Source of the DNA: Trypethelium eluteriae
Taxonomy: Eukaryota
DNA: 64,000 bases
NCBI GenBank assembly: GCA_051942245.1
Contig: JAVECL010000037.1
Span: 1-64,000 of the forward strand
Direction: 5' to 3'
A program made the position numbers and the translations under genes. The notes below the pieces were generated by a model. The model was not told the DNA's origin. It was given only the letters and a program-made list of their open reading frames with translations, and ran no database searches. Positions 10,795 to 45,217 of the stretch are shown one piece after another; within the stretch, counting starts at the first letter, position 1, and each line of letters starts with the position of its first letter.

Positions 10795-10941
10795 ATAAAG
10801 TGCGGGTCGTTGACGCTAGCGACACTCCTGTATTGCTATTAAGCCATTATCCAGTCTTGGTTCTTGCAATCGCTGAACAGGCTGTTGACATCAGACTTTC
10901 GAGCAGATGAGAAGTTGATAGGCTGTCCGGGGTTACTCATT
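10795..10941 (+). pseudogene. Duplicated 3' fragment of the GMC oxidoreductase pseudogene
   Basis: Near-identical by eye to ~17471-17617 (gttgacgctag...cctgtattgctatta..ccattatccagtcttggttct...gatgagaagttgata). Confidence 0.8.
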
Positions 10942-21654: not shown

Positions 21655-21929
21655 ATTTGTAGAGACCGTCATCCCAGCGAATGCTTGTATGTGAAGGTCG
21701 ACGACTGGAGGGATGCCTGTTGCTAGGTTATGAACTTTTCCAGCTACGAAATCACGAAAAACGCCCTTTAGTGCCCATCTGTCCAATGCAAGCAGAGATA
21801 TGTCGACAGGTGGTGGGTTCTCGTTGCTGTTGACCTCAGCTATGAAAGGCAAACCAATCAGGCTTGGTGGGCCCAAGTTGGGGACACCGGCAGCCCGAGT
21901 GGCCGGGAGCAGTTATTGTGGAGCAGTGG

Positions 21930-21939
21930 AACTCGGGTC
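21930..21939 (+). promoter_or_regulatory. Cluster promoter motif AACTCGGGTC upstream of NRPS-like gene
   Basis: Exact 10-mer shared with the P450, DMATS and FAD-oxidase promoters. Confidence 0.6.
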
Positions 21940-22117
21940 CCACTTAACTTCACTTCTCGCCCAGCGGCGACTGAAAAGCTCGGAGTTAGAGCTTTGGGTA
22001 GGCGAGCGGTAGGAGCAATGGCTTATGCAATACAATATTCAAGGGTTTCTGTGCCACAGACTTGGTCTACGTGATGTATATATTTACACGTGCCCAGCGG
22101 CACTTAGGAGATCTATC

Positions 22118-23628
22118 TTAATTATCGTTGACAATGCACTGGATTTTGAGGCCTGCACTGTGTTTGAGAACGCTTCCCATAATCTCGTGGGCAATACACG
22201 GATCCACCTGGCTCAGAGTCAGAGTGACACTGCCCTTTTGTTTGATTTCTTTGCGAGTTTCGCCATGGGCATAGACACTTGCACTGGCATTGTTCTCAAT
22301 GCCCACATGGTTGCTCGAGCCATCTTTGCTTCCTGGTATATCGAAGTACCCAACATCGAGTAATGCGGGATTCTGAAAGCATTGTTCATCCGTGGCACTT
22401 TTGGCCAACCATGGAGTTTGAGAAGCAGCTGCATCGGACGTTGTGGACTCTAATGCATTGAACCATGCTGTAGAGCCACTACAGGGCGTTGAAAGCCCCA
22501 CGTAAGTCTGGTCCTGTCTTGTAGTACCTGACCAGTGCGGCTCAAACACAGAATTCGTCGTCAAATGCGTCGCTGAAGATGTATGAGGCTGCTGAAAGTG
22601 CGGAATGCAAACGGGATCAATTCTGAGCTCTGAGGGGATGCTGATTTCCTGCTGAGTCATGATACCCCTGGACGACTCCTGAGCTTGGTGTAATTCTGAT
22701 GAGCCGGTATATTCACATTCAGAATTTTCATCACACGCATCCTCATCACCGTCGTCCTCTTCTCCATCACTACCCTGTGGTCCACCGTTCACCATATCGT
22801 CATCATCAAATGGCGGGCTAGGTTGTTGAGCTGGGACAGGGCGTCTAGGAAGTGTTTTTCGGCTCCGACGACCAAGAAGAAGACTCCTTGATATATTCAG
22901 CTAGTGTCACCGTTTGGCACAGGTTTTTTCTGGTCTCACCGATTACGAATATCGTGAGTGGAGCGGTCAGGTAGATCTGATAGCCCGATTTGCTTCCAGT
23001 TATTGCCGTATTTTGTGATGGCGTCCAGCAATTTTCTATCCTCTTCGGGAGTCCATGGAGAGTGCTTGAAGTCAGGCCCCAACACATGCTGCCATCGTTT
23101 TGCACACTCTGCCGCCGAATGCATGTTAGTTGAAGCGGACCGAGAATCATACCGGATGAGTACTTACGGTCTGCATTACGAGTTTGGACCATAGTGGCCA
23201 CTTGACACCATCTATGAGAGCTGAGAGTGAGTCTCAAAATCTGAACAGGGTTGCAAAGTCGAGGAGTAAGAGAATGAGAGGTAACGAACTTGAAGCCTAG
23301 TTGTTCAACTGCTTGCTTGAGACGCTCATCCTCTTCTCGTGTCCATGCCCCCTTTCTGATGTCCAGCTGTATCTTGGACCATCGCTTGCGGCAGTCTTTG
23401 TTGGTGCGATCGGGCAACGATGCAGCGATGTCGTTCCAGTTTTGGACAGTGCCATCTTCGCGCACTATGATACATGATGCAATGATTAGAATTCAGCCGT
23501 AACCCAAAGAAACATGTGACCACATAGGTCAGGAGCGGCAGCAGGCGATTACATTGAATTCGCACCCCATTCTTCAAAATATCATCTTCCTGACTGGTCC
23601 ACCATCGGCGTTCTCGCTGGGTAGCCAT
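22118..23628 (-). CDS. Three-repeat Myb/SANT transcription factor, likely cluster regulator
   Basis: Three Trp-spaced repeats across several introns: [60 protein letters not shown]. Acidic C-terminal region. Confidence 0.88.
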
Positions 23629-25148
23629 TGGCAGATCTTTTTAGCTGTTCCAGTTCCACGATCCGGGTAGCTATCTAAAACATAGCGTTACCGGCTTTAC
23701 TAGCAGACAAAAAGAACTAAAGAAGAACCAATACTTCCTATTATCTAAGTATCCTGGCGTCCAAGGTTTTTGGCTGTATACTAATCGAAATATCGAATGC
23801 TCAGCGCCAGGGGTTGACATTAGAAGTGTCGGCGCTCTGCTGAGAAAATGCCGACAATTTTTTTAGTCGCCGCCCGATGTAAGCCATATCTTACATGCGG
23901 TAAGTCTCGGATGGATTACCCAGGACGCTGGTTTGTGCATACGATGCTCGATATGATAGGTTTTCCCCGAGGCTCACCAAGGGCGATGGAGGGCCTTTCC
24001 AGCCGCACTCAATGCATGCAAGATAGGTAATCGTGCCGTCCCGACTTCCCCCTTTTGAGGCAAAGATTTGCGTACTGCTCCAAGCGAGGATCCGGTTTTG
24101 CAAAAATGCATCGCAAATCTTTGCCCCAAAGGGCCCAAAGGGAAGGACCGGGCCCTACCATGGTTAAGGGAGAGAAAAAAGAAAGGCGAATCGGTGAAGC
24201 TCCAGCCTTGCACCCTCGCATCGATCAAGATACTTTGCTTGGGGTCTTCATCCTGGCTGCCACGCGGTGTGAGCAACATAGCAACTGAGCGCGCGGAATC
24301 CGAGTTTCTTGGGGACATTACGCCCCACTCAGCTCGCATTTGCGGTCTACCTGCTTTACAGCGGAGAGATTAGTGTACCATTTTGGCTCTGCCCCGCAGC
24401 TCCTCATATTTCACCAATCTTTCGTCATTTCAGAGCGGATGCGAAGTACAAACCGCTACTACGTTCAGCATCTTCACGACACATATGAAACTAGTAGCTG
24501 AATGGCTCAATACAAGACAGTAAAAGTGGTTGGGATGAGAGGTCCCGCAGTGTGGTGGCTAGTGTCGGAATCGGATACTGATTTCTCTGTCGTAAAGACC
24601 GACCGGGACTCTACCGCGCATGAGGTCTAATCGTGTAATGCTGATAGAAGAGGGTTTGCCCAGCCCCATAAACCCGAGCAAATCCTTAGTGTGCCACTTA
24701 GCCTCCGAGTCAAGCAGCCAAGGACGTTGCAGATGGGCGCAGTCGGAAGGTGGATCCGGGAGAGCGATTCATGGCTTATAGGGACCCGACTTAATGCTGG
24801 TCCCTGTGTGGTTTGCTACAACTAAGCAGATTACAGTTGGTAGGACTATGCAGGGACAGCCGGCCCTTTGCAGCTTCAGAAACATTCACATTCCAGGCGT
24901 GCCCCCATGCTCCAATTTTGCATGGCACCCGGTGGGAGAAACTGACTAGGCTTTGAAGCGAAGCTTCGATCAGCGCCTGTAAAGTTTGTAAGCTTGGTGG
25001 TGCACACCTAACGATACCTCCTATCCCACCGATCCCTTCCTCTATTACTGTGGGTCGCAGCGCACGAATCATGTCACACTCAAGAAAGCAGCACGTGACT
25101 CATGCTTCATGCGTAGCAGCCTGGCATGGTGTAGGGGAAGAGATACTA

Positions 25149-25329
25149 CCTTACCGCGGCTGGGGGGTTCCTCAACTGGCAATCAATACAACGTTATTTC
25201 GACCTTACTGTTATGACCTTGTTGGCCCATGTTAAGGCTGCGTTAACATGGGTCAACAAGGTCATAACAGTAAGGTCGAAATAACGTTGTATTGATTGCC
25301 AGTTGAGGAACCCCCCAGCCGCGGTAAGG
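25149..25329. mobile_element. 181-bp palindromic MITE-like element, copy 4 (87-bp arms, 7-nt loop, 1 mismatch) in the Myb/PKS divergent intergenic region
   Basis: Arms 25149-25235 and 25243-25329 are reverse complements except G25225/T25253. Flanked by TA. Confidence 0.95.
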
Positions 25330-25675
25330 TACATGACGACCTTGCGATCTGGTCTTCATTTTCAAGCCTTGCACAGAAGCTTCACATTTAGGGTAAATTT
25401 TAATAGCACTTTTCTGCCAGTTATTCAGGTCCTTCATCACATATCACAGGCTTTCAGTCCAGCATATAGTGGAGGTCGCGACGCTGTGACTTACTGGATA
25501 AAAAACCCGTCATCAAGACAGACGGGAGGCGGATTACTTCGTACATTTGCCTTGAACCAGAAACCCTAAGATGTGGCGCGCTGATAAGAGACCCTGAGGT
25601 GCGCTGACGAAAGATGCATAAGAGCCGCCAAGAACGGCTCTTGCTTCTTCTCTGCCGTGCCTACATGACTCTGAC

Positions 25676-25687
25676 GGACCCGAGTCA
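25676..25687 (-). promoter_or_regulatory. Cluster promoter motif variant TGACTCGGGTCC upstream of PKS
   Basis: One mismatch from AACTCGGGTC, about 340 bp upstream of the PKS ATG. Confidence 0.55.
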
Positions 25688-26022
25688 AGCTGCATGCGTA
25701 TAGGACTCAGCCTGCAGCTGGACTTGGGGGCCGCCATCCCGTAGCGGTCAATTGGATGTCTGATGTAGCAAGTCAGTATGCTATCTTACCTTCGCCCACT
25801 GATGTACTCGCGTACCGATGACCGTTGATCAACGTCGAGAATAATATTCTCATGCACGCTTGCGAATCTGAATAGCGTCCTTTTTCAGAACAATGCCCTG
25901 TGATTCAAATAGCATGGATATCTTGTAGGCCAACACCCGAATTCAACTTTTTGTCCCACGCAACACTCTTGCTGTCCCTTCCTCTTAACAAGACCTCCTT
26001 TTAACAAGGAGGGATCTCCAAC

Positions 26023-29000
26023 ATGACTACGACATTCGGCTTCGAGACGGCTAGGGCCCTCCCACATGACGTTCCGCCTAATGCCATAGCAGTCGTCGGT
26101 ATGGCATGCAAATTTCCTGGAGCCGACTCCGTGGAAGAATACTGGCGCCTCTTAGACGCAGGAAAATCAATGCTGAGCAAGCCACCCAGCGGACGATTCC
26201 CGACCCATGAACACCCACGAAACACGGAGAGGACGGTGTATTTCGGTAACTATCTCGATGAGCTTGAAAGCTTCGACAACCGCTTCTTCAAGAAGTCCGC
26301 CCGCGAGGCGGCTTCAATGGACCCCCAACAACGACTTCTGCTCGAGGTTTCATATCAAGCCTTGGAATCTTCTGGTTTCTTCGGCCCCCGTGAACCAGAT
26401 CTTGACGTGGGTTGCTTCATTGGAGTGTGCGCGTCCGACTATAACGACAACGTAGCCAGTCATCCATCAAATGCCTTCTCAGCATTAGGAACTTTGAGAG
26501 CCTTCGTCCCAGGCAGAGTCAGCCACTTCTTTGGACTATGTGGGCCTTCGGTCGCTCTAGATACGGCCTGTTCGTCGTCTGCAGTGGCCATTGATGCTGC
26601 TTGTAAGGCGATCCTTTATGGCGACTGCAAGAGTGCCATTGCCGGTGGAGTTTCAGTCTTTACGAGTCCGTTTTTCTACCAAAACCTAGCCGCTGCGTCT
26701 TTCCTTAGTCCGACGGGCGCGAGTAAGTCATTTGATGCTGGCGCTGATGGTTACTGCCGAGGCGAAGGCGTTGGTCTCGTTGTTTTGAAACGACTTTCGC
26801 AGGCCGTCGTAGATGGTGATACCGTCCTGGGCACAATTCTCGCCACTTCAGTCAGACAAAGCAGTAATAAGGTACCTATTACAGTGCCATATTCCGCATC
26901 TCAGACCGGCTTGTACCGCAAGCTTCTGAGTACAGCTGGCATCGCTGCTGAGGATGTCAGTTACGTTGAAGCTCACGGAACCGGCACGCCTGTTGGGGAC
27001 CCCCTCGAATACGAAGCTATCAAGGAGGTATTTGGCGGCAAGTCAAGACGGGAGCCTCTTCATCTAGCCTCCGTCAAAGGGAACATCGGACACACTGAAG
27101 GTGCTTCTGGAGTTGCTGGTCTGATCAAGACCATTTTGATGATGCAGAACCGCACCATCCCGAGACAAGCTAATTATGTATCGGCGCATCCCAAGATTAG
27201 CCTCGTACCAGGGCAGATCTCCATCCCCACAGAGAACCTTCAGTGGAATGCTAAATCCCTCATCGCGTGCGTCAATAACTATGGAGCCGCGGGTAGTATC
27301 GCTGCAATGGTTGTCAAGGAAGCGAGGCAAGGGCAGAGTCTGCAGGCTACACAGACCCGCGGCCTGAGCAAATACCCCTTGATTGTCACTGCGAACAGTA
27401 CCAAAAGTCTCGGCCAGAACTGCGCCAAATTGAGGGACTTTGTGTCCTCGTTCCAGGGTGGTGCCGCTTCTCGTGCGAGTCTGCTGGCGGATCTGACTTT
27501 CAATTTGAGCGAGAAGCAAAATCGATCGTTACCCAACATATTCACAACAACAGTCTCCAGCTTGTCGGATTTGGATGACCAGCTTCGTACTGTGGCGTCG
27601 AATCCCGGTTTGCCACTCTGCCAAACGAATCCCAAGCCGAATCCAATCGTTTTGGTCTTTGGTGGTCAAACAACTCGATCTGTGGGCCTCAACAAGCAGG
27701 TGTACGAGACTTCAGCACTTCTCCGCAAGTACCTTGATGAGTGTGACGCGGTGCTCAAGGGCTTTGGATATCGGGGTATCTATCCTTACATATTTGAGAC
27801 GAAGCCCGCCGACGACGTTGTCTCGAACCAGACAATGCAATTTGCGCTACAATACGCTTGCGCTCAAGCGTGGATCGCCTGCGGTCTGAAGGTCGACGCT
27901 GTCCTGGGTCATTCTTTTGGTCAGCTCGTTGCCCTAACGGTGGCTGGCGTGCTCCCCCTGGTAGACGGTCTTAAGCTAGTGTACGGACGAGCTATTCTGA
28001 TGCGCGATCGATGGGGCTTTGAAAGAGGTTCCATGATTGCCCTTGAAGCTGGTCGTGACGAGGCAATGGGACTTGTCGCGTCAGTACAGCAGACAAACGG
28101 CTCTTCAGACTCTGGACTTGAGGTGGCATGTTTCAACGGACCGAAAAGTCACGTGCTCGTCGGAACTTCCGCCGAAATTAACGAGGCGTCCAAGAAAACA
28201 ACAAGGGCAAAGGCGAAGATCTTGGACGTGACCCACGGCTTCCACTCAAGGTTCTGCGATCCCATACTCTCCGAGTTGGAGAGGCTGGCCCAGGGTTTGA
28301 CATTCAACAAGCCTAAGATACATGTCGAGACCTGTTCCATCGGGGAGACGTGGCCTTCTGTCACACCAAAGCTGATAACGGACCACACTCGCGCACCAGT
28401 CTACTTTGAAGACGCAGTCAAGCGTATCGCGACCCGATATGGCGCGTGTACCTGGTTAGAAGCCGGCTCTCATTCGTCCGTCACTGGCATCGCTCGTCGG
28501 GCTCTATCCGATCAGAATGGCCAAACCGTCAACGATCTATTCTGTCCCGTTAACTTGAATCGAGATGATTCTCTGGGCGCCTTGGCAGATACGACCGTCA
28601 ATCTCTGGAAGCATGGTCACCACGTTCAGTTCTGGCCATTTCATCACATCCACAACCAAGATTACCTATCTCTGAATCTGCCTCCATATCAGTTCGAGAA
28701 GTCACGGCACTGGCTCGAGTTTGACCTTGGCACAGAGGAGGCATCTAAGTCAAACACTGCACCGTCTAAGACGCCTGAGCCGTCAGCCGTTGAACCGGAG
28801 CCGGAGCCAGTACTCATTACCTTTTCTGGCTTCCAAGACGCTGTTGATGGAGGTCACGATGGCGCAAGACAGGCTGTTTTCACGATTGACCCACGTTCGG
28901 AGGAGTGGAAAGCGCTCGTCGCCGGTCATTCCGTGCTACACGAGTCTCTATGTCCGGCGCCATTGTACATCGAGCTGGTTTTACGAGCTGCTAATCAGCT

Positions 29001-32000
29001 TGCCTCCATCAAGAACATTTCCTGCGCCCCATTTGCTCGTGTGGATGACCTAGAAATCCCTTCACCGCTGGGTATGAGTCAGGATAAAATCGTCCAGCTT
29101 GTCCTCAGCCCATCCGACCAAACTGGTTGCAAGTTCAATTTCTCTTTTCTTGCGCAGGCACGTCAAACGGGTCCTGGGCGACAGGGCACATTCCAAGCAT
29201 CCCAGCCTACGACTAAACATGCTATTGGAAGGGTTGAGATAATTCCAGCCCATGACACTGCTGTTACTGCTGAGCTCGAACGGACCAGGAAACTCCTTCG
29301 CCACATGCAGCAGAACCAGAGCCAGGACCGGAATCAGAAATTTGCCGATATGGCGGCGCAGCCTGGTGGCGAGGCTGTCCTAGGTTCGCTCGTGTACAAG
29401 GTCTTCTCCAGAGTTGTACAATACCACGACTTCTACAAAGGTGTTCGTAGAGTCGCCAGCACCAGTGACGGTGCAGTTTCGGCAGAGGTCTACCTACCCG
29501 AATCACAGCCGAGCTGCACCCAGGAGCTTATCTCCACTCCAGTGGCCATTGACAACTTCTTCCAGGTTCCTGGACTGTTTGCGAATTGTCTGGCACCGTG
29601 CCCATCAGACGAGGTCTTTGTCTCTACGCACGTCGATCGCATCCAGTTGTCACCCGAATTCGGCAAGCTGCAGGCCGAAGGGAAAGCCCGCACCTGGGAC
29701 GTTTTTGCGATGTCTACAGCATTAGGCGACAAGGAAAGCAGCAATGACATTTTCGTCACTGATCAGATCACTGGCCAGCTAGTTTTCGTCGCATTCGGTG
29801 CCAAGTTCAGCAGAGTACGGACTGCAGCACTTGCAAAGATTCTATCTCGGGCGAATCCCGGTGATGCATCTACGACTACGTCTTCTACGTCTGCTCCACG
29901 AGGTCGTACGGAGAATAAACCGGTTGTCTCAGCAGCACCTCCAGGAAAGCAATCGGCAGCCATCTCGGGCCAATTGCTTCATCCTCGTCAGTCCGAGCAG
30001 CAACAGCAGCAGCAGCCGTCGCAGAGGCCCCCATCTCCAAATAAAGCAGCTTTCGTTGAGAAGACCATGCCATTGGTACCCTCTGTCACCGAAACGGCGC
30101 CTCAGGTCGTTAGCGTGGAAGATGACTTACGCGAAATGCTCAGCAAGCTGACAGACGTCCCGGCGAATCAATTCCAGAGCCATGTCTCGCTTGAAGACCT
30201 TGGCATCGATTCTCTTCTTGCTACAGAGATAGTGTCAGAGGTTCGTGACTTATTCCATATATCGATAGCACTGGATCGTCTCCTGGAACTCCAAACCTTT
30301 GGATCTCTCTGTAAATATCTAGATGCCCATAAGAGCCAGCAGGTCCCTCTGAAAGAGTTCACCGTTCCTGAACCTCATGCAATCCCCGTCGTAGTTCCTG
30401 TTCCACCTACACTGCTCAGCCACGAAACCACAAACCAGCATGTCAATCCTGGCCATGAACTCGAACAGATCCCACAAATAGCCGGAATTCCAACGACCGA
30501 AGAAAACGACCAACATCAGGATTTAGTGTCGCAATTGGCGAGCCTATTAGGCAGCCATCTCGAGTGTCCAGCGAGTGACTTTGAGCGTTCAACGAATCTC
30601 GCAGATCGCGGTCTCGATTCTCTTCTCTGCATGGAACTTATGAACGACATGAAGACGATGTTTGGCGTCTCGATTGACCTGTCTGTTCTCGTAGGCGACA
30701 GCACCTTCGGCGACCTTTCCGACCTACTTGTCAGTGCGAATACGCCTCTTGGGCATACGGGCACGGCAAATTCAAGCACACCGGCCTCGACGCAAGCCAG
30801 GTCATCTGGTCGCACGACACCAGTGACGATTCCCGATCTTGGCACCAACGAGCCTGATGACTTGAAAATGACCACAAAAGCGCCGTCTCCAACAGGCAAT
30901 GTCCTAGCTAGCGCAGCTCGCGAATTTGAGGGCATCAAGGGTGATTTCGACAAATTCGCAGCCGAATACAAATTCAGTGACTTCTACAGCAAAGTATACG
31001 ACAAGCAGGCACACTTAGTCCTGGCCTACACGGTGGAGGCCTTCTCGGACCTTGGTGTCGACCTGAAGTCATTGAGATCTGGTGATCCGATCCCTAGAAT
31101 CAACGTGGTGCCAAAACATGATCGCCTACTTAATGTCTTGTACGAAGTCCTCCGTCATGGTAAATTGGCCGATTATGACGGTAGAGGATACGTTCGGTCA
31201 GATGCACCTATCGACATAATGCACTCCAGCGTCCTTTACAAGGACATCGTGGCACAGTTTCCCCAGCATGCCAAGGAGCACATGCTTTTGAACCTCTGCG
31301 GACCTGAAATGTCCAATTTCTTGAGCGGCAAGACGGATCCCCTCTCCGTCCTGTTCGGTACGAAGACGAACCGGAGCATTCTCGAGGACGTGTACAGCAC
31401 CGCTCCCATGTTTGTCATTGAGTCGCAGCTTCTCACTTCATTTCTTGAGAAGGCGCTGAGTACTTCGGTGCCCGGGCCTGACGGCAAATTCCACATTGTC
31501 GAGTTAGGAGCAGGCACAGGCGCAACGACGCAATGGGTTGTCGACCGTCTTGTCCAGCGCGGGATACCGATCGAGTACACTTTCACTGACATCTCGTCTT
31601 CACTGCTCATAACGGGCAAGCGCAAGTTCTCCAAATTCGACTGTATGAAGTACACTACCATCGATATTGAGAAGGAGCCAGAAGCCCAATATCAGGGACA
31701 ATTCGATATCGTACTCGCGACCAATTGCATTCACGCGACCAGCAACCTCCAGAACTCCTTGACCAACATTAACAAGCTCTTGCGGCCTCACGGCTTCGTA
31801 TCGCTGGTTGAGTTGACAACGAGGAATTACTGGTTGGACATGGTCTTCGGCCTCCTCGATGGCTGGTGGCTGTACGACGACATGCGACCATATGTGCTTG
31901 CGACTCCCGAGTTCTGGAACAAGTCGATGCGACAGACTGGATTCCAACACGTTTCGTGGACGGGTGGACACACGCGTGAGTCTGAGGTCTGCAGGGTCAT

Positions 32001-33173
32001 CACTGGTTTCAAAAGGCCAGTCGAGGACCCTTCCTCGTATCAAAGCATACCTCAAGAAAAAGTTGGCGATGTTGAGACGGTCGTCTTTGCGCACACCGAC
32101 AAGAAGCTCCCGCTACGAGCTGACGTCTACTACCCTTCGCCGTCGCAGACATCCGCTCACGGGACGTGGGTCGCCGGTACGGTATAAAGTCTGATTACCC
32201 ACCTACATGCTGGAGCTGACGCCGCTCTGGTACAGGCTTGTTGGTCCATGGAGGCGGCCATGTGATGCTGTCCCGAAAAGATTTACGGCCGCGCCAAATC
32301 CAGCTACTCCTCGACAACGGCGTTCTGCCCGTGGCTGTAGACTACAGGCTGTGTCCAGAGACCACAATCCTGGACGGACCACTCGTTGACGTCAGTAACG
32401 CATATGCCTGGGTACGAAAGACGCTCCCGTCCTTGAAGCTAACACAGACTAATGCCAATAAACTGCTCGATCCATCTCGAACGGTGGTCATTGGCTGGTC
32501 GACCGGGGGCACGTTGGCCATGTCGTTAGCCTGGACCTCTATACCACGGGGGCTCCCAGCTCCCGACGCCATTCTGGCCTTCTACTGCCCGACTGACTAC
32601 GAGGATGATTTTTGGCGCAAGCCCAACATCCCCGACCACTCTGACACGTTCGGAAACGAAACCTATAACGTCATCGACGGAGTTTTCCCCGCGCCCATCA
32701 CCTCTTACAATGTACCCTCCAAGATGGCGTCTGCTGGCTGGATTGCGCCGAAAGATCTTCGCAGTCGGGTGGTGCTCCACATGAACTGGCACGGGCAGAC
32801 GCTGCCTGTGCTCTTCAGGGGCCTGCCATCAGCTCAGAACGTGGCATCGCAAGATGCGGTGAGCTTCAATCATTTGGAACAGCCGCCAAGGGAGGACATC
32901 ATACGTGCCAGTCCTTACGCACAGATAGTCCAGGGCAACTACAAGTCTCCGACACACATCGTGTTCGGCACCAAGGATGATTTGATCCCATGGCAGCAGG
33001 GCCAGCGGACGGTGGAGGCGATGAAAGACGCAGGCATCGAGTCTGGATTTACGCTCGCGCCGGATCAGATTCACCTATTTGATATGTATCGTGATCCTGA
33101 TGGAAGGCGCTGGCGTTATGTCATAGAGGGGTATAAGTTTCTGCTTCAGAGGATAGGAAAAGAAATTGTATAG
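26023..33173 (+). CDS. Non-reducing polyketide synthase KS-AT-PT-ACP-ACP-cMT-esterase (methylorsellinate-type), no SAT domain seen
   Basis: KS DTACSSS, EAHGTGT, GHTEGASG; AT GHSFG; PT-like region; two ACPs (LGIDSL, RGLDSL); MT VELGAGTG. Intron 32177-32235 joins an HSL-type hydrolase (HGGG, GWSTGG). Confidence 0.95.
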
Positions 33174-33885: not shown

Positions 33886-35484
33886 ATGGCTCTTCCAAAC
33901 CGGCCTAAACCAGACAGCCAACGACCACCTATATTCGTCCTTGACGTGAAGCCGGAGTCCATCCTACGAAATCCAGATGAAGATCTTGTGGACCTTCAAA
34001 TCGCCCGATGTGCCTTGCAAATTGCACTTCTGGGCGAGACCGATGTCGCACGTGAGCTCGATTCCATTTTCTGGATGTCTGCTCTAGTGAATCCAACTAT
34101 TCGCAACCTCAACTTGAAGTTTGCCTGGGTCGAGACGGGGAAATGGCCTGAAGGCATTCCCGACGACAAAATATTGGAGACTTCGCTGGCAGAATTGGAC
34201 AAGACCGACGGATTTCTCTGGCAGCACAATGCAGATCCGCAACACAGAATGCCTGCGTTTGACGAGGAAAGCATGAGGAAGCTGTTAACCAGAGACGACA
34301 TGTCATTTGGCTTATTCCAAACCGGCGGATTCATGGACAATTTAGAAAAGCTCGTCCGAGCCCTCGTAATTTCGCAAAGTTTGCATCCTACTTCTGGTGT
34401 GCGCAATCCCGAGCGGCATCCTGAACAGGCAATCGAACATGAGAAATGGCCTTCCGGAGAGACCAAGGACAAGCTGCGTGATCGGATCCGACTTTCGGAC
34501 CTGCACGAGCAAAGCGCGAGTATAGTGAGAAATCTCGTTGCACACTGGAACCATCGGGACCATCGGCTTATGGACTACTTTGCCCACGCAGGCATGCTCT
34601 GGCCACTTTATGTGCGCGGCCTCCTTGCCGACGCCCTCAACATCGACCAAACTGAGCTCAAAGCGAAAGGCGAAATCCTGATACGCGTCTTTAAAGAGCG
34701 CATGCGGCATCCCGGCGGAACTTCGTCATTGTCCTCGTTGTCAATAAGGGAGCTTGTCGAGCTTGCGGATAAAAATACTCTCCATGGAGCAGGGAAGGAA
34801 GATTGGATGGAAGTCCACTTTGATGACGATGCGCCCCCTGAGACACTGATGAGGGGTCCTGCTTCTCAGGAAGACATTTCCAAGCTGGAGGCACGTCTGA
34901 ATGCCACTCTACCGGATGACCTCAAAGAATTCTTGCTGATCACTAATGGTTACGGCCAATATATTAGCGAGGTAGTAGGCTGGGAGAAGAGCCACGATAT
35001 GTTCGGATTTTTCAACGGTTACTACAATGATCCAGGTTTATATCGAATTGACGACATACAATGGGAGGAGGACGAAGTGTTCCAGAAACCTCTAGAGATG
35101 CTCGAGCTCCCTATGAAGTTCGGAGAGGGCTTGGTACCGAAACGCATGCACCCGGGACCTTATGCCTGGGACAGTCCGTTCCCGCTCTGCAAGCGAAGAC
35201 TCAAGCTCGGTAGCTGGGATGTCGACTATTTGTTCCTTGTGGAACCGAGCGTCGTGAAAGAGGCACAAGAGGTGTACTTGAGGATGTACGAAGCAGCGAG
35301 TAGCGAGCAAAGGCGTGTACTCGATCGAGCGATTGTGGCATTCGCTGGCAGCATGGAAGACTTCATGAAGGTTGATTGGTTGCTGCTTAGGTGGAGAAAA
35401 GGTTTCGATGACTCGCACAGCGGCGTCAAGAAGTACATTGAATACGTTGCACTGAAATCGCAAGAGGATCCAGGGCCTATGTAG
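33886..35484 (+). CDS. SMI1/KNR4 (SUKH) domain protein
   Basis: Intronless ORF containing GPASQEDISKLEARLNATLPDDLKEFLLITNG, the characteristic N-terminal motif of SMI1/KNR4 domains. Confidence 0.75.
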   Translation: MALPNRPKPDSQRPPIFVLDVKPESILRNPDEDLVDLQIARCALQIALLGETDVARELDSIFWMSALVNPTIRNLNLKFAWVETGKWPEGIPDDKILETSLAELDKTDGFLWQHNADPQHRMPAFDEESMRKLLTRDDMSFGLFQTGGFMDNLEKLVRALVISQSLHPTSGVRNPERHPEQAIEHEKWPSGETKDKLRDRIRLSDLHEQSASIVRNLVAHWNHRDHRLMDYFAHAGMLWPLYVRGLLADALNIDQTELKAKGEILIRVFKERMRHPGGTSSLSSLSIRELVELADKNTLHGAGKEDWMEVHFDDDAPPETLMRGPASQEDISKLEARLNATLPDDLKEFLLITNGYGQYISEVVGWEKSHDMFGFFNGYYNDPGLYRIDDIQWEEDEVFQKPLEMLELPMKFGEGLVPKRMHPGPYAWDSPFPLCKRRLKLGSWDVDYLFLVEPSVVKEAQEVYLRMYEAASSEQRRVLDRAIVAFAGSMEDFMKVDWLLLRWRKGFDDSHSGVKKYIEYVALKSQEDPGPM

Positions 35485-35682
35485 TAAAGCATAGTTCGCT
35501 GATGTTTTCGCTATACATCCTCTCCTGGGATCCATGTATCACCTTCTCTATCAGTATCTTCTAGATGCCTTAAAAGCTCAGCATTGCCACTGCCATTTAG
35601 CATTTCCTAGGCAATGCTTGGTTGTTATTTCCTCACGAGATATTCAAATAGACTTCGACGGGGACCGGCGTTACTTATACGA

Positions 35683-35872
35683 AACTCAGGCAGACTCAGG
35701 TCAACTTAGGTATAACTCAGGCTCAGGTTTGCTTACTAACTGCTCATGCCTGAAATTAGAGAAGGAAATGGGTGAGCCTGGTCAATTTCTATGGACTTAC
35801 CTGTTGGTGAAGCCATATGTTGGTTGGACCCGAGTTGCTTATTGCTTGCGTCGCGGTCATTGGACCCGAGTT
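35683..35872. promoter_or_regulatory. Motif cluster upstream of P450: ~10-bp-spaced ACTCAGG repeats and two TTGGACCCGAGTTG copies
   Basis: actcagg/acttagg/ctcagg five times at 35684-35727; GACCCGAGTT at 35827-35836 and 35863-35872. Confidence 0.65.
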
Positions 35873-36045
35873 GTCCAATCCAAGGGACTCAAAATCGAGT
35901 GCACAACATGAAGTCGCGACATCATTTTCCCTCGAGAACTTAGAAGTGTGGCCATATCTGAGAACTGACGTAGTAATTTATACCCAAGACCAACTGCTGG
36001 AGACATGAATTGATTCGCAGAGTTCACTCGCACGTAATCTCCACC

Positions 36046-38087
36046 ATGGATCTGGAATACCTTTCCAGGCATATCGATGCCAGGGTCTGCAACCTAGCCG
36101 GTATTCTAGCTGCTGCCGCCATATTCGTAGCCGTCTGCAACACTCTGTACTCCTATCTGCGCTTGAGACATATTCCGGGCCCACGTTCAGCAGCTCTCAG
36201 CAACCTGGTGCGTCGATCGTGGGTCAAGACTGGTGACGCCCATCACATACACACCAATTTACATCGTCAATATGGTCCGGTTGTGCGATACGGGCCCAAT
36301 GCAATCATGGTCTCCGACCCTGGTGCCATCGAGAAGATCTATGGATTCAAGAATCGATTTGAGAAAGTATGTCATAATCTCCTTCCGTCTTCGTGGCTAC
36401 CTGCATGTCTAAAGTCACATAGTCTGAGTTTTATGACTCCATCATGCCTAGGATCAAGGGCGGCAAGATTCCAGACGTATTTGCCACTCGTGACGAGAAC
36501 GTACATCGGCAAATGAGACGTCCTGTGGCTAATTTATACTCGGCTACAAATCTGACCAGATTCGAACCGCTTATGACGTCCACTTTACAGTATTTTTTTT
36601 CCCGCTTAGATGAACTATATACTGACGAGAAAGTCGAGTTGGATCTCTTCAAATGGATCCAACTCTTCATGTTCGATGTCCTTGGCGAGGTTACGTTTTC
36701 GCGCGCTCTGGGGTGCCTTGAAAAGGGGGACGATGTCGAAGGCGTCATTGAGGGCATCTGGCTTTACTTCAAGAAGATCTCAGCAGTGCGTACTTATCCC
36801 AGCTCAATCTTTCACGCGGCTTGAACCCTCTTGCTGATCATCTGTCCACGTCTCAGAATACCCAGATGCCTTGGCTGGATTATCTGTGGAGGGACAATCC
36901 CTTGGTCCCCGTTTCGACCAAGAGGAACCCGCTGGCCGAGTTTGGCATGGCTCGTATTATGGAGCGAATGAGTCTGACCGAGAACGAGAAGCTCAACATC
37001 GGCGAGAAAGACTTCCTCTCGTGTTTCATAAAGGAGCAGGCTAAGGACGATACTCTGCCTGATATGTAAGTAATTGCTCAAGCCTTGGCAAATATTGCGT
37101 ACACACCAACTAATACATAACGCACTTACAGGTTCGTTCCCACATGGGTAAGTCGTTTGAGGACCAGTTGAGAGAGTTCATTAAAGCGGCTTAGGGATGC
37201 GCTTTCTGCATGAAACTCTTGAGACGTGGTTCAAGGCGTATCCGCGTGTGAAAGATCAATGACTAACCCGACTCTTACAAGGTTAATTCCAACATTGTTG
37301 CGGGAGCAGACACGACCAGTATAGTTGCCAGCGCTTTGATGTATCATCTTCTCAAGAACCCCGCCTCTCTGTCAAAACTCAGAAAAGAGGTCGATGACGC
37401 CGCATGCGAGGGCCGCATCTCCAAATACGCAACCTGGAAAGAGTCTCGAACCCTGCCCTACCTAGAGGCCTGTGTGAACGAGGCCACTAGGATGAATCCA
37501 CCTTTCGCCCTCCCCTTTGAGCGTGTGGTACCCGAGACAGGAGTGGAAATCGACGGCTACTTTATTCCACCGGGCGCCAGGGTCGGAATGGTAAGTAAAC
37601 TCCTCTGCTTTTGGATCCTCGAATGCCAGTTCTTTGCTGACGCTTTATTAATTGTGCCAGAGCCCTTGGGTGGTGCATCGTGAGGCATCGCTGTACGGCG
37701 ACGATGCCGAGGTTTGGCGACCGGAGCGGTGGATGTGCAGCGAAGAGAAGAGAACGGCCATGTACAACGGACTTCTAACGGTAAGTCAAATCGCTACCAC
37801 GATGACCTTTCCGTTCCGTCAGCTCACTTTCCATTTCGCTCAGTTTGGCGCGGGTCACCGAAGCTGTCTTGGGAAGCAGCTTGCCTATTTTGAGATCTAT
37901 AAGCTCATTCCATCGCTGCTGCAGCGTTACGATGTAAGTGAACCTTGGGTTGCTTATTTTGTTGAGAATCTAAATTGATATTCCGTGTCAGATTGAACTT
38001 GTCAGTCCCGTTGGGGATTGGTCTATCGAGAATAGATGGCTTGCCAAGCCGTCCGGGTTCCGCGTAAAATTATCAAGTCGCCGCTAG
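36046..38087 (+). CDS. Cytochrome P450 monooxygenase
   Basis: N-terminal anchor, IPGP, AGADTT, EATR, PERW and FGAGHRSCLG. About seven introns, including a 16-nt micro-exon at 37132-37147. Confidence 0.93.
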
Positions 38088-38866
38088 AGTCATGTAAAAC
38101 TTTGTAAAATCTTACTGCACATATATGATAGCTTCGCGGACTGTAATCCAGCCTCGTAGAGCAGCTCTTGTGCATCATGGTTCAGGGAGGCTGCATCTCT
38201 TAGACCAGGGTGGGGCCCGTTCTGCCAGCATCCTGTTCATCTTGCCTCCCTGGATTAACCATGCGCTGCATGTGTCGTACTGCAAACCTGTCCCCCTTGA
38301 ATTATGTCTATACCGGGGGAGTGGCACTGAAGCCTCTACCGTTCCATGCGCCGTAATGGCGGGACGGGACTCGAGTTGCCATACTTGACTGTGCACTGTA
38401 GCTAGCTGACAGCTTGGAGTGGCGGATCGCGCGGCACGACCGACTGCTCAACACGCGAACACTTTCAGTGTCACCGAAGACAATCTTACACGACAGCGAA
38501 CGGTAGGTTGTGGTCTTCAATTGATTTGATACTTTTCAGTGCCCTCAAGTCATGAACGCTTGTACACATAAAACAAATTTTGATACCTTGGCTCGTGGCT
38601 TAGCGATCATTGCAACCGGAGCCAGTGCGTCGCCCTTACTCTATTTAGCAGTGGCTGAGAGCTGGCGTCAAATCCTCACCAGCTCCCTGTCAAGTAACTC
38701 AGTCACGCCCTGGCCCTCTAGTATACTAACACACATTGCATTCTTTTGACCATAGTTCTATGGATTTACTGGAGCCTATTCCGATGGATACACTCAGAAT
38801 GCCCATTGCATTATATAAAGCCCGCTGTCTTTGTGTGATTTATGGGTCGATGGTCGCTTATGAAAC

Positions 38867-38894
38867 CAACTCGGGGCCTCCTCAACTCGGGTCC
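38867..38894 (+). promoter_or_regulatory. Tandem cluster motif (CAACTCGGGGCC, CAACTCGGGTCC) upstream of DMATS
   Basis: Exact AACTCGGGTC at 38884-38893, about 115 bp upstream of the ATG. Confidence 0.6.
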
Positions 38895-39008
38895 GTTCAG
38901 CTTGTTCACAATTGTCTGGGTTTGGAATAAAAACGGTTTTGCAGTCGTCCGGAATCTTGTAACCAGTCACTGGTTTGTTAAGCCGTCACCCTTCCATTCC
39001 AATCCATC

Positions 39009-40394
39009 ATGCCAGCTCTCATAACAAAGTCGGAGGCTGAAGCGCCGCCGCCCAAGGTGTGGAATTCGTTGGTGAAGAAGTGTCTCCCGCCCGCCGAAAG
39101 TAAAGATGTCGACTTCTGGTGGAAACTCACTGGGTACCACCTAGCTGTCATGATCGATGCGGCCGGCTATTCCACTGAAAAGCAGTACGAGGTGCTGCTT
39201 TTCCACTATCACTGGGTCGTAAGTAAAACTGGATACGCAAATGGCCAAGAAATGTTCTGATTGCATGTTCAGGTACCTCGGTTGGGTCCCGCACCACATC
39301 CAGATGGCCGCGCTGTGTTCAAGTCACTTATAGCCTACGATGGCTCGCCCTTGGAGTACTCCTGGAAATGGAACACTACAACGGGTGAACCCGATATCCG
39401 CTACTCCTGGGAGGCAATCGGGCCCAACTCGGGCACGGCCGCAGACCCACTGAACCACGATCCCACATTAGATTACATGGAGAAGGTGCCGAGCGTACTC
39501 CCGGGCGTAGATTTCTCTTGGTATCGTCACTTCCTGCGCGAGTTGTACAACCCAGATAGATCCGCCTATGCCAAAGAGCTGGAACAGGGCGAACCCCCAG
39601 CTACTACTCTCATGCACGCTGTCGAGTACAACAAGGAGAAAAGCTTCGGACTCAAGTCGTACTTCCTGCCACGAAAACTGTTCCAAGGAGGTGACCCCGC
39701 GACGTCAAAGGAATGGGACGAGGCCATCATAAAGCTCAACCCCGACGGAAATCATCCTGGCCGTGACGCCCTACAGCACTTCCTCAAGAACAGTCCCGAG
39801 GGCCGACTCATGAAGCCCAACGTGATGGGCATGGACGATGTCAAGCCATCAAAGTCGCGGCTGAAGATGTACTTCACCTCAGCTCACACCTGCTTCAACT
39901 CAGTCCGAGAAATCATGACTATGAGCGGAACCCGAGACATTCCGGAATCTAGCCTGCAGGACCTTCGCTCCATGATCCTCGCCGTGTTGGGTCTTCCCAG
40001 TGACTTCCCCGAGGATGTCGAGATCCCCGTCGAGGGCAACGCCGACAACGATTGGCCCGACTTCGCCGCGCTATGCGAGGGTTTCGTGTACTTCTTTGAC
40101 ATCGCTCCCACAAGTGGCACGCCGGATGTCAAGTTCTACTTGACCACGCGTAAGTACGGGGCGGACGATCTGACCATCGCCCGGAACCTAACGGCTTGGA
40201 TGCGCGCACACGGTCGCGGTGTCTACGCCGACCAGTACATGGGCATGTTGGAGAAGCTCGCAGTGCACAGAGGGCTGGAGAACGGGAAGGGGATGCATGC
40301 GTACATCAGCTACCAGTGTACCAAGAAGGGAGAGCCGGATATTAAGTCGTACATTTCTCCTGAGTTGTACCATAAAGCGCGCTATGCTGCGTAA
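39009..40394 (+). CDS. DMATS/ABBA-family aromatic prenyltransferase
   Basis: DFWWKLTG, AGYS..QY..LLF, LGPAP, DGSPLEYSWKW, LKSYF, SRLKMY, VKFY, IKSYISP. Intron 39219-39272. Confidence 0.92.
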
Positions 40395-40487
40395 AATGCC
40401 CTGCTGGGGATAGCCTATGACCAAATGTAAACACATATTGAACACAACCACGATATTTACAAGCGATATGCATGTCAAATATATCTC

Positions 40488-42047
40488 TCATGACATCTCA
40501 ATGCTCCTGCGCTGGGTATTCTCCCATAGTAAACGGCCTGGATTGTCGTGCAACGCGAATATCCAAGGGAGGCCACACAACTGACGCCGGATAGCTGGCC
40601 AGTCATGTAGGTCCAGTCTTCCGCATGTCTCCAAAATCAAAGATGACAGCCAAGGATGATCCATGCGTTTCAACGTTGAGATGCCAGCCACGAAGAGAGT
40701 CCATAAAAGTAGTGAGGATCCGCCGTCCTTGGAGTCTGTAGATATGGTCTGAAGATACCGAATAGCACTCTCCAGACGAGCAGACAAAAGAAGGTAATTG
40801 GATTGGTCAGAACCGTATTCCGGAAGCAGGGTTGTCATGAATGCTAGCAGTGCAAGATGCGCTGCCTCTTCATGGGTGCTTCTCGACATGCAGCGTGGTT
40901 GACCCAGGGGAGCGGCCTCTAGTAGACGATAGATGAGCGACAATAGCGCCTCCGTGAAGTTAAGTGGATCAAGCTTCGTTCTCCCTTCCTTCTGCCTACT
41001 ATTCAGGAGGCTGACAAAGCTGAGAACATCGAGCATGATACGTGAAAGCCAGGGGTTGGTGCTGGAATACTGCTGTTTGGTGATGGATGAATCGTCTAGG
41101 ACAGCGTTTGCGGGTATTGCATCGCTGTGAAACAGGGTTGGTGAGCCGGTCTGCAACGCCAGCTCGACATCAAGCCTGTCAATTGTAAGAATTTCCGCTG
41201 CGGAGGAAAGATAAGAAGACTAAAAAGGCGGCGGATGCAAGCACATGCACCTACCTCAATGGCTTCAGTGCCAAAGCACGATTCTCTTTCATCAACCTGG
41301 CAATTCCGCCCCGCAACTGTATCATTCGATACAGCCCATTGAGATGTATCAAGCCAGTAGAGTGTTGATGATGCACCTGTTGGTAGATGGCTAGAGTAAC
41401 GACAGCAGCAATCGCGCTATCTGAAACTGACTGGGGACCTGACAGCCTTAAATTCACTAATTCATACGCCTTCGAGATGTGATGTAAAGTCTTCGGCGAG
41501 ATTGAAGACTTGCGCTCGAAGAAGTCGACATAGGACGCCGAGATTGCCAATGTAGAGTGAAAGTCTGGCGACCCTTAATGTTGCTGCATAAAAGGGGTGT
41601 TCGGCTTGTTACTTACATGCTTCATCTGCCAAGACACAATTCATCCAAATTGACTTTATTATGTCGAATTTCCTGCAGAATTGGGGCGGAAATAGCGCAT
41701 CACTAATGTCGAAGAACCCTGACAAGCGTGTAAGAAGATGAAGTGGACAAACGGTTAGAGAACACTGTACATCGATGCATAAGTTTAGTAGCTTCGGAAT
41801 CAAGTTGCTGAGGAAAGGAAATCAGACACAGATCATTCCACAGCAAGGATTTTGGGCTTTCTGCCGGTGTACAGGGCGGAGTTAGGACGCCTTTTTTGGT
41901 ATGAACGTCGGTCGTCTGTCTTCTCCTCGACGGGCGTGGTCTGCCTGCATTCTTGCCTCTCATGACATGGGAACGAATGATGCGCCGCTCGGACTTGCCT
42001 ATCCCTACCGATCCTTGTTCGATGAACTGAATCGCCATGCCCGTCAT
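40488..42047 (-). CDS. Fungal-specific transcription-factor-domain protein lacking a Zn2Cys6 motif
   Basis: N-terminal FI...RRIIRSHVMRGKN basic motif, HLNGLYRMIQLRGG, LLLWTLFVAG and C-terminal W..IRRQL..LPW. Three introns; start at 42047 or 42038. Confidence 0.7.
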
Positions 42048-43151
42048 GCTGGGCTGTTCTTGTCGCGTTGACCGCCAGATCGAGGAAACGTAATGGCTGA
42101 TCGTCACAGGGTCCGATACCGTAAGAACCGGAAGACCAGGACACGGTACCGAAGAAACTCACATTATTGATCATACATCAGACCACTTAGGTAAAGTAGG
42201 TTTCTAGATAGGGCTGTCAAGCACATGATTATCAAAGAGTAAGTGAAACGTGGAATAAGCTGGTCACGCTGGGCTGGATTACCTTGTCCGGAAGAATTTT
42301 CTTCCGCTCCGAAGAATCTTTTGCATACCGTAACAAAGTCACGTGCGTGTAATACGCCAGTCTAGCCTATGACCGATATGTGATTGTGAGTATCTTCGGT
42401 GTTTATGCAAGAAAGCTTCAAGATCGGACGCCCGCGATGGCCTGAGCCAATAAAAATAGAATGAGATAGCCGCCAGCTTTGCCCACCTGCGCACTTGCAG
42501 CCACGCTGCTGCTGATCATGTGACAACCAGACAAAGATCGGGTAGAGGCCAGGAGGTAGTTTGACGAGGACTTAGAATGAACACACCACGAAAGCTACCA
42601 ATGTCAGTAAGAACGAGCGGGATGGGCGATAGCACTGAAATGCACTTACTCATCACCTCGAGCGACCTTAGCAGTACAGACTACCTATGTATTGGAATAT
42701 GTGCAAGAAGGTTTTACCATAGGACCGCCTTGTCCGGCCCCTGTCTACGTCTTTTCCCATCAATCTTTCTGATTGCCATTGACCCGCAAAGAGCGCACCA
42801 ATCAACCGCATTCATTTCTATGGAGGAATAATAATATGGTTATCTCGTACTTCTGTAAGTAAAGCTGTACTGCTCATGACAAATAATGGAGTAATACTAT
42901 ACTCTATCTTATGTACAATGAAGGAGTGCTATGTTTCATATTGTACATAGCGAAAGAGTAATAATATATAGAGAGTGTAGGAGAAAGATATCGGAAATAC
43001 AAAAATTATACAGGAAAACTACGAAAGTGCGATGACCCTTGCTACGAATGAATGCGGTTAGATGGTGCACTCCTTACAGATGTCCCCGTTGACGCCTTAT
43101 GATGCCCAAGTCCAAATTCTTATCACCAGCCCAACCCTGCTCCACATTCTG

Positions 43152-44780
43152 CTATGTCCACTTTGCGAGATCGGACGGTACAGCGTGGTACCCGTTGAAG
43201 AAACCATGAGGGTCGTAGGCGTTCTTCACATTTGTCAGACGCTCATGTCGCCACTCGTCGTATCCGTAAAGGGCTGACAGCGGCTCGTCACCGTGAGCGT
43301 AGTTCTGGTAAATCTGGAGCTGGTCGTAGCCGTCAACAGTGTGGAACTTGTTGCGCCATCCCAGGAAAAAGCTATCAACCGCATCTCCCACGGAATCATC
43401 CGTATATGCACCGATGGCCTCGATGTGGTTGCGGAAAGTCTGACGATGAGGGAAGGCAGTGGCATTGTCGGGGAGTGCCTGGATGCCCTCGACGGCAAAT
43501 GTCTCGATCATCATGGCAGACCCGTTAGCCAGGGGGTTGTCGTGTAGGAACGTACTCAGATCGTTGGTGAAGTCGACCCAGCTTTGCGGCTCCAAAGTCT
43601 TGGATATCAAGCTGTAGAGATCGTATCGCAGTCCTTCAGCGCAGGCCCCCGGGAGAAGACCGAGAACCGACTTCGTGGGTAGGTCTGCCCATGCAACCAT
43701 GCTCTCTGCAAGAGTGAGGCTAAAGTCCGAAAATAGTTTGGTAAACTTCTGACCCTCATCCATGGGACCAGCATACACGATATTGACTATGATTTCGAGC
43801 TCGGACGTTGTGGCATTTTGGAAGAAGAACATGACGAAGGCCAGTGCAGGATCCAATCCGGGGCCCGTCAAGTTGTTAGTGACTTCCATGATTCGGTCTA
43901 CATCACTTTTGGCGAACGTCATGTCTGCATTGTAATGCATGCCATTATTGCTCGCAGGCCAGGTCTGGTAGGTAGTTTCGATGACGACGCCGTAGTTCTG
44001 GCCGGAGCCTCTCACAGCCCAGAACAAATCTGGGTTGACGTCTTCAGAGGCTTCCACGATGGTGCCATTGTACAAAGCCATGCGGACCTTGAGAAGAGCG
44101 TCGCTTGTCAGGCCGTGCTTGCCCTGAAGACGCCCGAGACCACCACCAAGCATGGCGCCAGTTGCACCGACGCAAGGACAGGATCCCACGTCTGAGCCCA
44201 GGTTAGAATGAGCACGAAACACTTGTGATTGAAAAACTTACTCAATTCTCTTCCTGAGTCGCCGACAGTTTTGACCATGTTTCCGAAAAGCACGCCTGTG
44301 CCTACAACGATTGTGCCATCGTCTTGCACGTTGGTGTAGTTGAAGTTCTCAAGGTTGATCAAGACGCCGTTTTGAATTACCTCTAGAGTTTCGGAGTATC
44401 CGTGACCTCCCGATTTTGCCAACCAGCTCAAATTGTTACTTGACATGTATTGAAGCTGCATGACCCGTACATTAGCCTCTATTCCATTCTGACCCGGAGA
44501 TATGGGCCTCAGAGGACGATCTACTTACGCCCTCAGATAACTCTTGCTCGGTCTCCGGAATGAATACTTGATTGAAGGTCGGAGCCTTGTACGTAGACCA
44601 CCGAGTCGTTGCTTCCGTGAAGTTGGGCCAGCTTTGGTCATGAACGAAGCTGGCCACATCACTAGGCCAGACGGAGCCATTCTGCCGCGGATAAAGATTT
44701 ACAGACGTCAAAGGTGTACTTGAGGCAGACTGGATGATTGCCAGGAGCCCCGGCAAGGCTTGAAGTGAAAGGCGCATCAT
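43152..44780 (-). CDS. Secreted FAD-linked oxidoreductase (BBE-like)
   Basis: Signal peptide MMRLSLQALPGLLAIIQSASS; KSGGHG flavinylation motif; CPCVG..G..LGGG.G, DLFWAVRG, YQNY and K..YDP. Two introns. Confidence 0.92.
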
Positions 44781-45166
44781 TTTCGATGGTTGTAAATTTG
44801 GGAATTCCGGGACACAAAAGAATGAATGACACTGACTCTCTGATCTCGTACAGCACAGGGACCTATAACAACAGACGACCACATCCTTTTGTATCCCTCT
44901 TTTGCGCCCTCAACTTCTTGTTAGAATAGCCATCATTTTTTTTTGTCACTCATCACACCAGCCGTTGCCGTCCTTCCATGGCCGTGCCGTGCCGTGTTGG
45001 TGGTGGCTCAGTGTGAAGCTGAATCCTTCAGTTGAGGCGAAATGGCCAAGGCAAACCTGTATTAGCTGAATGCAGGGTCTTACAGAACCCTGCAGAGACC
45101 CTGCATGTCTTTGGCAGGATCCGAAAACGTGCGTTTTACCGAGCATGGATCCTCGCGTGGACTTGA

Positions 45167-45217
45167 TGACTCAGGTCCGTTCACAACTCGGGTCTCATTT
45201 TTGGCCCGACTCAGGCC
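45167..45217 (+). promoter_or_regulatory. Three cluster motif copies upstream of the FAD oxidase
   Basis: TGACTCAGGTCC 45167-45178, AACTCGGGTC 45185-45194, GACTCAGGCC 45208-45217. Confidence 0.62.

Follow-up and report, generated by a model that had tools for sequence, protein, structure and literature searches.

Which regulator acts on the enzyme genes of a fungal biosynthetic cluster, and through which promoter sequence? The question is raised by a 64,000-nucleotide stretch of the Trypethelium eluteriae genome (contig JAVECL010000037.1, positions 1 to 64,000; hereafter the window), in which enzyme genes of a polyketide synthase (PKS) cluster are preceded by copies of one short motif, and for which a preliminary description had put forward RACTCRGGTC as the binding site of a Myb protein encoded in the same cluster. 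The refined core of the motif is ACTCRGG(T/C)CC, in either orientation. It is almost certainly a real, conserved and cluster-specific promoter element, and we give a probability of about 0.8 to the reading that it is the upstream activating site of a cluster of the zin type, described from Alternaria alternata, and is read by the cluster's three-repeat Myb, both binding and activation being predicted.

Five exact copies of AACTCGGGTC stand on the two strands of the window, at 21930 (+), 35827 (-), 35863 (-), 38884 (+) and 45185 (+), just where the preliminary description had placed them. Its variants at 25676, 45167, 45208 and 35693 were likewise recovered, and the one given for 38867 exists, although it begins at 38868 and reads AACTCGGGGCC. 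The listed sites lie 115-428 bp from an ATG, within the range of about 100-450 bp first estimated, and eight of the nine RACTCRGGTC matches in the window fall in the cluster (21930-45194), the ninth being the outlying variant already reported at 1791-1800. The expected number of copies had been put at 0.12, and shuffled windows indeed held a mean of 0.13 copies of AACTCGGGTC. This figure overstates the significance, however, as the commonest 10-mer reached five copies or more in 39 of 100 (order 2) and 41 of 100 (order 4) Markov-simulated windows, the comparison being made with repeats masked in the window. An unrelated word, CAAGGCTTGA, likewise has five copies, dispersed over the masked window. 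Because about 40% of simulated windows hold some 10-mer at five copies, copy number alone is no evidence and was rejected as such; the significance of the motif stems from its promoter location and its conservation.

Promoter location was assessed in the 500 bp upstream of all ten genes from the non-ribosomal peptide synthetase (NRPS)-like gene through the HET gene. De novo, the top 9-mer was ACTCGGGTC, present in the promoters of the NRPS-like, PKS, cytochrome P450, DMATS prenyltransferase and FAD oxidase genes, and none of 1000 dinucleotide shuffles put any 9-mer in five promoters. The top 10-mers, ACTCGGGTCC and AACTCGGGTC, each occur in four of the ten, again matched by 0 of 1000 shuffles. 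Enrichment in the cluster promoters exceeds post-hoc chance. No site scoring above background was found within 500 bp of the starts of the Myb, SUKH, second transcription factor (TF), short-chain dehydrogenase/reductase (SDR) and HET genes, in line with the earlier remark that no exact copy precedes the SDR, SUKH and second-TF genes; the SUKH gene is probably outside the regulon. A role at the RNA level or as a core promoter was rejected, the motif being found on both strands relative to the genes. An expression check (run X2) returned five short contigs, none of which covered a promoter.

Conservation was examined in orthologous clusters. Thirteen loci were obtained by searching metagenome contigs for DMATS, and the neighbouring genes mark three of them as orthologous, L001 and L002 (both 79%) and L003 (54%). 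The L003 segment, of 21 kb, holds P450, O-methyltransferase, DMATS, oxidase, SDR and NRPS-like genes and the first Myb exon, its PKS promoter and most of the Myb lying outside. In the 27.5 kb of L002 and L003 together, four exact copies of ACTCGGGTCC were found against 0.032 expected (P = 4e-8), an expectation that uses the outside-cluster rate of the T. eluteriae genome (G000) and hence another genome's background. All four copies lie within 500 bp of a start, a region that makes up 14% of this sequence. With a scoring matrix trained on eight window sites, seven of the eight distinct held-out promoters fell in the top 3% of 1173 overlapping background windows, namely P450 (19.2) and DMATS (14.1) in L002 and P450 (19.2), O-methyltransferase/DMATS (14.8), SDR (14.8), NRPS-like (12.0) and Myb (11.8) in L003. 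Comparison of promoters between loci by blastn gave three matches in all, each of them the motif itself. GGACCCGAGTT is invariant and on the same strand in the three P450 promoters (window, L002, L003), and the tandem pair before DMATS is retained in L002 with a spacing of 15 (16 in the window). The motif is conserved in orthologous promoters while the flanks diverge, and the check on orthologous promoters proposed at the outset thus came out in its favour in both L002 and L003. An exact ACTCGGGTCC is absent from the other ten DMATS loci (L004-L013), which are non-orthologous; in L006/L007, ACTCGGGCCC falls within coding sequence, and L008/L009 have AACTCAGGTCT 4.6 kb from the DMATS match. A de novo search of L003 by itself, in which ACTCGGGTCC ties as top 10-mer (3/6 promoters, 18/1000 shuffles), was set aside as main evidence because the NRPS-like and Myb windows overlap and inflate common words.

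In the whole of the 29.03-Mb genome there is no enrichment of the motif. ACTCGGGTCC occurs 39 times against 44 for the reversed control, five of the 39 copies being in this cluster, and RACTCRGGTC has 158 matches against 255; the latter rate predicts 0.15 copies per 30-kb cluster, a value that does not account for the post-hoc choice of the word. A second ACTCRGG core lies within 60 bp in five of the eight cluster promoters with an exact ACTCGGGTCC, against none of the 34 other genomic copies (Fisher P = 7e-5), so that the comparison with the genome background which had been recommended left the outside copies both unenriched and unpaired.

The composition of the core was taken from 23 ACTCRGG promoter cores (13 in the window, three in L002, seven in L003), the seven core letters being fixed by the search definition. 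The preceding base is A in 13, G in five, C in four and T in one, R is G in 17 and A in six, and the three following positions are T (13) or C (8), then C (18), then C (17). A CGG triplet is accordingly present in 17 sites and CAGG in six. The preliminary description had drawn on two known cores, the AAC of canonical Myb sites and the TGACTC of yeast Bas1. Both occur, AAC in 13 of the 23 sites and TGACTC in two, but the argument is weak, as the motif has C where the canonical Myb site has G. The sites conform neither to AACNG/AACNDN, position 5 being C (a letter within the search core), nor to the Bas1/Gcn4 type. The use of TGACTC by Bas1 is given in a reference title and one passage of PMC6234034, and Bas1 is set beside the motif by description. 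With the Bas1/Gcn4/BIP1 element the motif has ACTC in common, whereas TG precedes ACTC in the same two sites only and the conserved part of the motif runs 3'. In the available part of PMC7145699, two Asn and one Lys of repeat 3 of WER read the AAC of its site 5'-AACNDN-3', and the fifth base, at which C is excluded, is read by a Lys in repeat 2. The motif can be read in the same register as the canonical (C/T)AACNG site, (R)ACTC against AACNG, with Asn154 of the window Myb at the place of the Asn reading the first A. In contrast to the canonical and WER sites it has C at position 5 and an extra GG(T/C)CC tail of 5-6 bp, and three of the four key residues are changed in the window Myb (Asn to His150, Lys to Arg153, Lys to Asp98).

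Of the regulators in the cluster, the Myb is the strongest candidate for reading the motif: a Myb is encoded in L003 too, but the 21 kb of that locus show no match to the second TF, so that L003 shares no other regulator with the window. That the clustered Myb reads the motif is probable, as far as binding can be predicted. Its five-exon model is identical over 410/410 residues to a protein labelled Viridothelium virens (P0074), and three PF00249 stretches in one intact reading frame make it a 3R-MYB; the ESM Atlas confirmed the Myb fold and nothing further, and an exon-only structure search returned no match. In the family, 86 members have all three helices detected, those of repeats 1 and 2 being nearly invariant while repeat 3 is variable (25 helix types). 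The helix H-[DE]-[IL]-R-N-R, found in 22 of the 86, forms one clade (100/99) in a tree whose alignment retained the helix columns, with proteins named from Alternaria, Plenodomus, Penicillium, Colletotrichum and Biscogniauxia. In two genomes of this clade, Penicillium mononematosum (N7519_010514/010518) and Plenodomus lindquistii (NX059_009866/009870), four steps separate the locus tags of DMATS and Myb, the same distance as between zinC and zinG. None of the matches of the family search is named Bas1, BasR or CicD. Another family Myb, at G000:C17:79605-79760 (L017), has an in-frame TAA in its match.

The WER contact positions, mapped via a c-Myb alignment, fall on Asn154, His150, Arg153 and Asp98 of the window Myb. 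In the proposed mechanism, repeat 3 would read (R)AC, Asp98 of repeat 2, a Lys in canonical Mybs, would favour C over G at position 5, and reading of the GG(T/C)CC tail may fall to the basic helix of repeat 1; the replacement of the repeat 2 Lys by an acidic residue would explain why ACTC is used instead of AACNG. The Myb would bind one to three copies in either orientation, some 110-430 bp upstream of the enzyme genes, and switch on together the PKS, NRPS-like reductase, P450, prenyltransferase, FAD oxidase and perhaps the divergent SDR, a set expected to lead from methylorsellinate to a prenylated phthalide or isoindolinone. Sites that differ in orientation and in their spacing (15-38 bp) point to monomers binding independently, not to a rigid dimer.

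The earlier proposal that the motif is the site for the cluster Myb and defines its regulon holds as to a cluster-specific element with the Myb as best candidate, but the edges of the regulon need nuance, since the L003 orthologue of the SDR has two sites. The sites at 45168..45218 sit in the interval common to the FAD oxidase and the divergent SDR. Both the window and L003 have one site group between these two genes, proximal to the oxidase in the former and to the SDR in the latter, and the group may serve both, the SDR then being part of the regulon. Autoregulation is hinted at in L003, where a site precedes the Myb start by 66 bp; in the window only a variant is found, 1.15 kb from the Myb ATG.

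Several points weigh against the cluster Myb as reader of a motif that defines its regulon. The promoter width of 500 bp was picked after the sites were seen, the window SDR has no site within that distance of its start, and the L003 FAD oxidase promoter has none either (score 2.8). L001 equals L002 in the DMATS promoter and was counted once, which leaves two independent orthologous clusters only, and L002 is too short to reveal a Myb. Asn154 is conserved and should fix A at position 1, yet this base is A in only 13 of the 23 sites and C in two of the three strongest L003 sites. Finally, at least two other family Mybs of the genome, on contigs C54 and C10, have near-identical helices in repeats 1 and 2 and may act in trans.

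This last point leads to the alternative that survives best, though an improbable one, in which the motif is a genuine cis-element but its reader is encoded elsewhere and acts in trans, be it a paralogous Myb comparable to BasR, a CGG-reading zinc-cluster protein or a Gcn4/BIP1-type basic leucine zipper protein. The same helices in the paralogues and the CGG triplets would allow it, and there are precedents in the accessible parts of two papers, BasR regulating several clusters in trans, cichorine included (PMC6234034), and BIP1 controlling the ACE1 cluster via TGACTCG (PMC10833574). A broad regulon, however, is unlike the lack of genome-wide enrichment (39 against 44; 158 against 255) and the 34 unpaired outside copies; the presence of TGACTC in only two of the 23 sites and the six CAGG sites, which are without a CGG triplet, also speak against it. 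It is very unlikely that the Fungal_trans_2 protein (second TF) reads the motif or is needed alongside the Myb: it adjoins DMATS in the window and in L002, but it has no recognisable DNA-binding domain, the cluster holds no intact Zn2Cys6 pattern, the motif is kept in L003, in whose 21 kb this protein has no match, and a single regulator is listed for the zin cluster in the available text of PMC12268544. Least probable is that the motif has no regulatory role, having arisen by chance or been left behind by old promoter duplications. Although some 10-mer reaches five copies in about 40 of 100 simulated windows, the enrichment is confined to promoters, it recurs in held-out clusters, which largely refutes this reading, and the motif aligns between promoters while the flanks do not.

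Table 1. Genes of the cluster and sites of the motif, numbered from the first letter of the window.
Feature	Position	Strand	Remarks
NRPS-like A-T-R carboxylate reductase (ZinF-like)	18307..21672	-	Pfam; 53-58% to L003; end inferred from last open reading frame (ORF)
Three-repeat Myb (ZinG-like), 5 exons, 410 aa	22118..23628	-	Spliced model; proposed motif reader
Non-reducing PKS (ZinH-like), KS-AT-PT-ACP-ACP-CMeT-hydrolase	26023..33173	+	Pfam; compared by eye with the part of zinH available
SUKH-domain gene	33886..35484	+	Pfam; intronless by ORF; no motif site
Cytochrome P450 (ZinA-like)	36046..38087	+	Pfam; 61-66% to L003, 75-77% to L002 over two exons
DMATS prenyltransferase (ZinC-like)	39009..40394	+	Pfam; DMATS search
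Fungal_trans_2 protein (second TF) without Zn2Cys6 domain	40488..42047	-	Pfam; promoter without site
FAD/BBE oxidase (ZinD-like)	43152..44780	-	Pfam; L003 comparison
SDR relic, apparently frameshifted	45695..46393	+	Between FAD oxidase sites and intact SDR; unlike L003 SDR
SDR (ZinE-like)	47437..48555	+	Pfam; nearest site group 2.2 kb upstream
HET-domain gene	49333-51399		Cluster border; Pfam
Weak partner site CACTCGGGCTG	21891..21901	-	NRPS-like promoter
Site AACTCGGGTCC	21930..21940	+	258 bp upstream of first NRPS-like ATG (21672)
Variant AAGTCGGGTCC	24782..24792	-	Divergent Myb-PKS interval, ~1.15 kb from Myb ATG; possible role uncertain
Site GACTCGGGTCC	25676..25686	-	337 bp upstream of PKS ATG
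Three degenerate cores AACTCAGGCAG, GACTCAGGTCA, AACTCAGGCTC	35683..35724	+	322-353 bp upstream of P450
Site AACTCGGGTCC	35826..35836	-	210 bp upstream of P450; invariant in L002 and L003 P450 promoters
Site AACTCGGGTCC	35862..35872	-	174 bp upstream of P450
Tandem pair AACTCGGGGCC + AACTCGGGTCC, spacing 16	38868..38894	+	131 and 115 bp upstream of DMATS
Three sites GACTCAGGTCC, AACTCGGGTCT, GACTCAGGCCT	45168..45218	+	388-428 bp upstream of FAD oxidase

The genes and sites are collected in Table 1. The site at 21930..21940 is 276 bp from an alternative NRPS-like ATG (21654) that better fits the L003 start. A 188-bp near-perfect hairpin element with TA-rich ends, resembling a miniature inverted-repeat transposable element, is found at 4617-4804, 10305-10492, 16491-16678 and 25147-25334, the last copy falling in the divergent Myb-PKS promoter; counting both strands it has 82 matches in the genome, which corresponds to about 41 places at least. 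The window also contains a tandem repeat with a unit of about 170 bp (51715-52243) and a dispersed repeat pair of 143 bp (10794-10936 and 17470-17612).

By Pfam content, the enzyme set clustered in the window (P450, FAD oxidase, SDR, A-T-R reductase and a C-methylating non-reducing PKS) is that of the zin type, without an O-methyltransferase in the window; L003 and the PKS are linked to zin by eye. Proteins of the window and L003 are 43-66% alike on their main segments. The PKS begins directly at KS, with no SAT match by Pfam in its start region (26023-26100), whereas the paralogue on C54 has SAT. A ZinB-like O-methyltransferase was not found in the genome with one exon query, a weak one, and 48 other O-methyltransferase matches are present. 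The predicted product is a prenylated phthalide or isoindolinone derived from 3-methylorsellinic acid, its O-methyl group possibly missing. A remote O-methyltransferase near G000:C63:42024 was rejected as completing the pathway, being only weakly like the L003 enzyme, with a single site and an AflR-type regulator of its own in that cluster. The site concerned, a single ACTCGGGTCC at G000:C63:42024-42033 (L029:2024-2033), lies between the divergent P450 and O-methyltransferase genes of another non-reducing PKS cluster, and reflects possible cross-regulation or chance.

The closest published system is the zin cluster of A. alternata, which, in the parts of PMC12268544 available, has a non-reducing PKS, an A-T-R reductase, a P450, DMATS, an FAD oxidase and an SDR together with a Myb. 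L003 has the zin gene order A-B-C-D-E-F-G, and by eye it is very close to the published genes, its gene starts resembling the zinB, zinC, zinE and zinF primers; zinG DNA likewise appears by eye to encode the three recognition helices of the window Myb. A HET-like ORF1 is listed for the zin cluster as well, comparable by description only with the HET-domain gene bordering the window cluster. Compared with zin, the window cluster lacks the O-methyltransferase, follows another gene order and additionally holds an SDR relic, a second TF and a SUKH gene. In the main text of PMC12268544 the word 'motif' is nowhere used and ZinG is mentioned once. The cic cluster of Aspergillus nidulans is alike in its clustered Myb activator, methylorsellinate non-reducing PKS, NRPS-like enzyme and P450, and deletion of CicD abolishes cichorine, which makes a clustered Myb a positive regulator of that pathway; CicD is unlike the window Myb in being listed as a two-repeat protein of 341 aa, and the portions of PMC8395729 and PMC11199622 available, from which these points are taken, give no binding site for it. 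The 44% match of ZinG in A. nidulans is presumably CicD. A search of full-text literature, with subscription journals and bioRxiv supplements outside its scope, found no report of the motif or of a CicD or ZinG binding site, and a prior report elsewhere is possible.

A more tentative extension, which we consider doubtful, is that the fungal 3R-Myb family has a common C-R-G-G-Y-C-C tail read by all members, with repeat 3 setting the 5' letters. If true, specificity would follow a readable code, through which every orphan cluster Myb could be assigned its promoters. The lead comes from ACCCGGGCCC at G000:C54:48264-48273 (L019), 83 bp upstream of a non-reducing PKS and beside an inverted half-site; it is the only ACNCRGGYCC match in 38.7 kb at C54, the pattern having been set post hoc and on one case. 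The related SAT-bearing PKS is adjoined by the paralogous Myb of that contig (51.3-51.9 kb, L015), whose repeat 3 helix is TDIKNR. On C10, the sole ACNCRGGYCC match in 30 kb lies at 7104-7113 (L022), about 0.9 kb upstream of the paralogous Myb L016.

That one motif stands before the enzyme genes of a cluster is a general principle already well known, the AflR site being an example of a pathway-specific promoter motif in fungal clusters. Like AflR-type motifs, the present one is a short word before a cluster's enzyme genes, but it is asymmetric and non-palindromic and its proposed reader is a Myb. It helps to draw the cluster borders, excluding the SUKH, second-TF and HET genes, and it is conserved across distant fungi. 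For clustered Mybs like CicD and ZinG, which are known, or else presumed, to act as pathway switches, a candidate site of 10 bp makes specificity testable; it also suggests a route by which a Myb may have exchanged the canonical AACNG for a site that is longer and has C at position 5.

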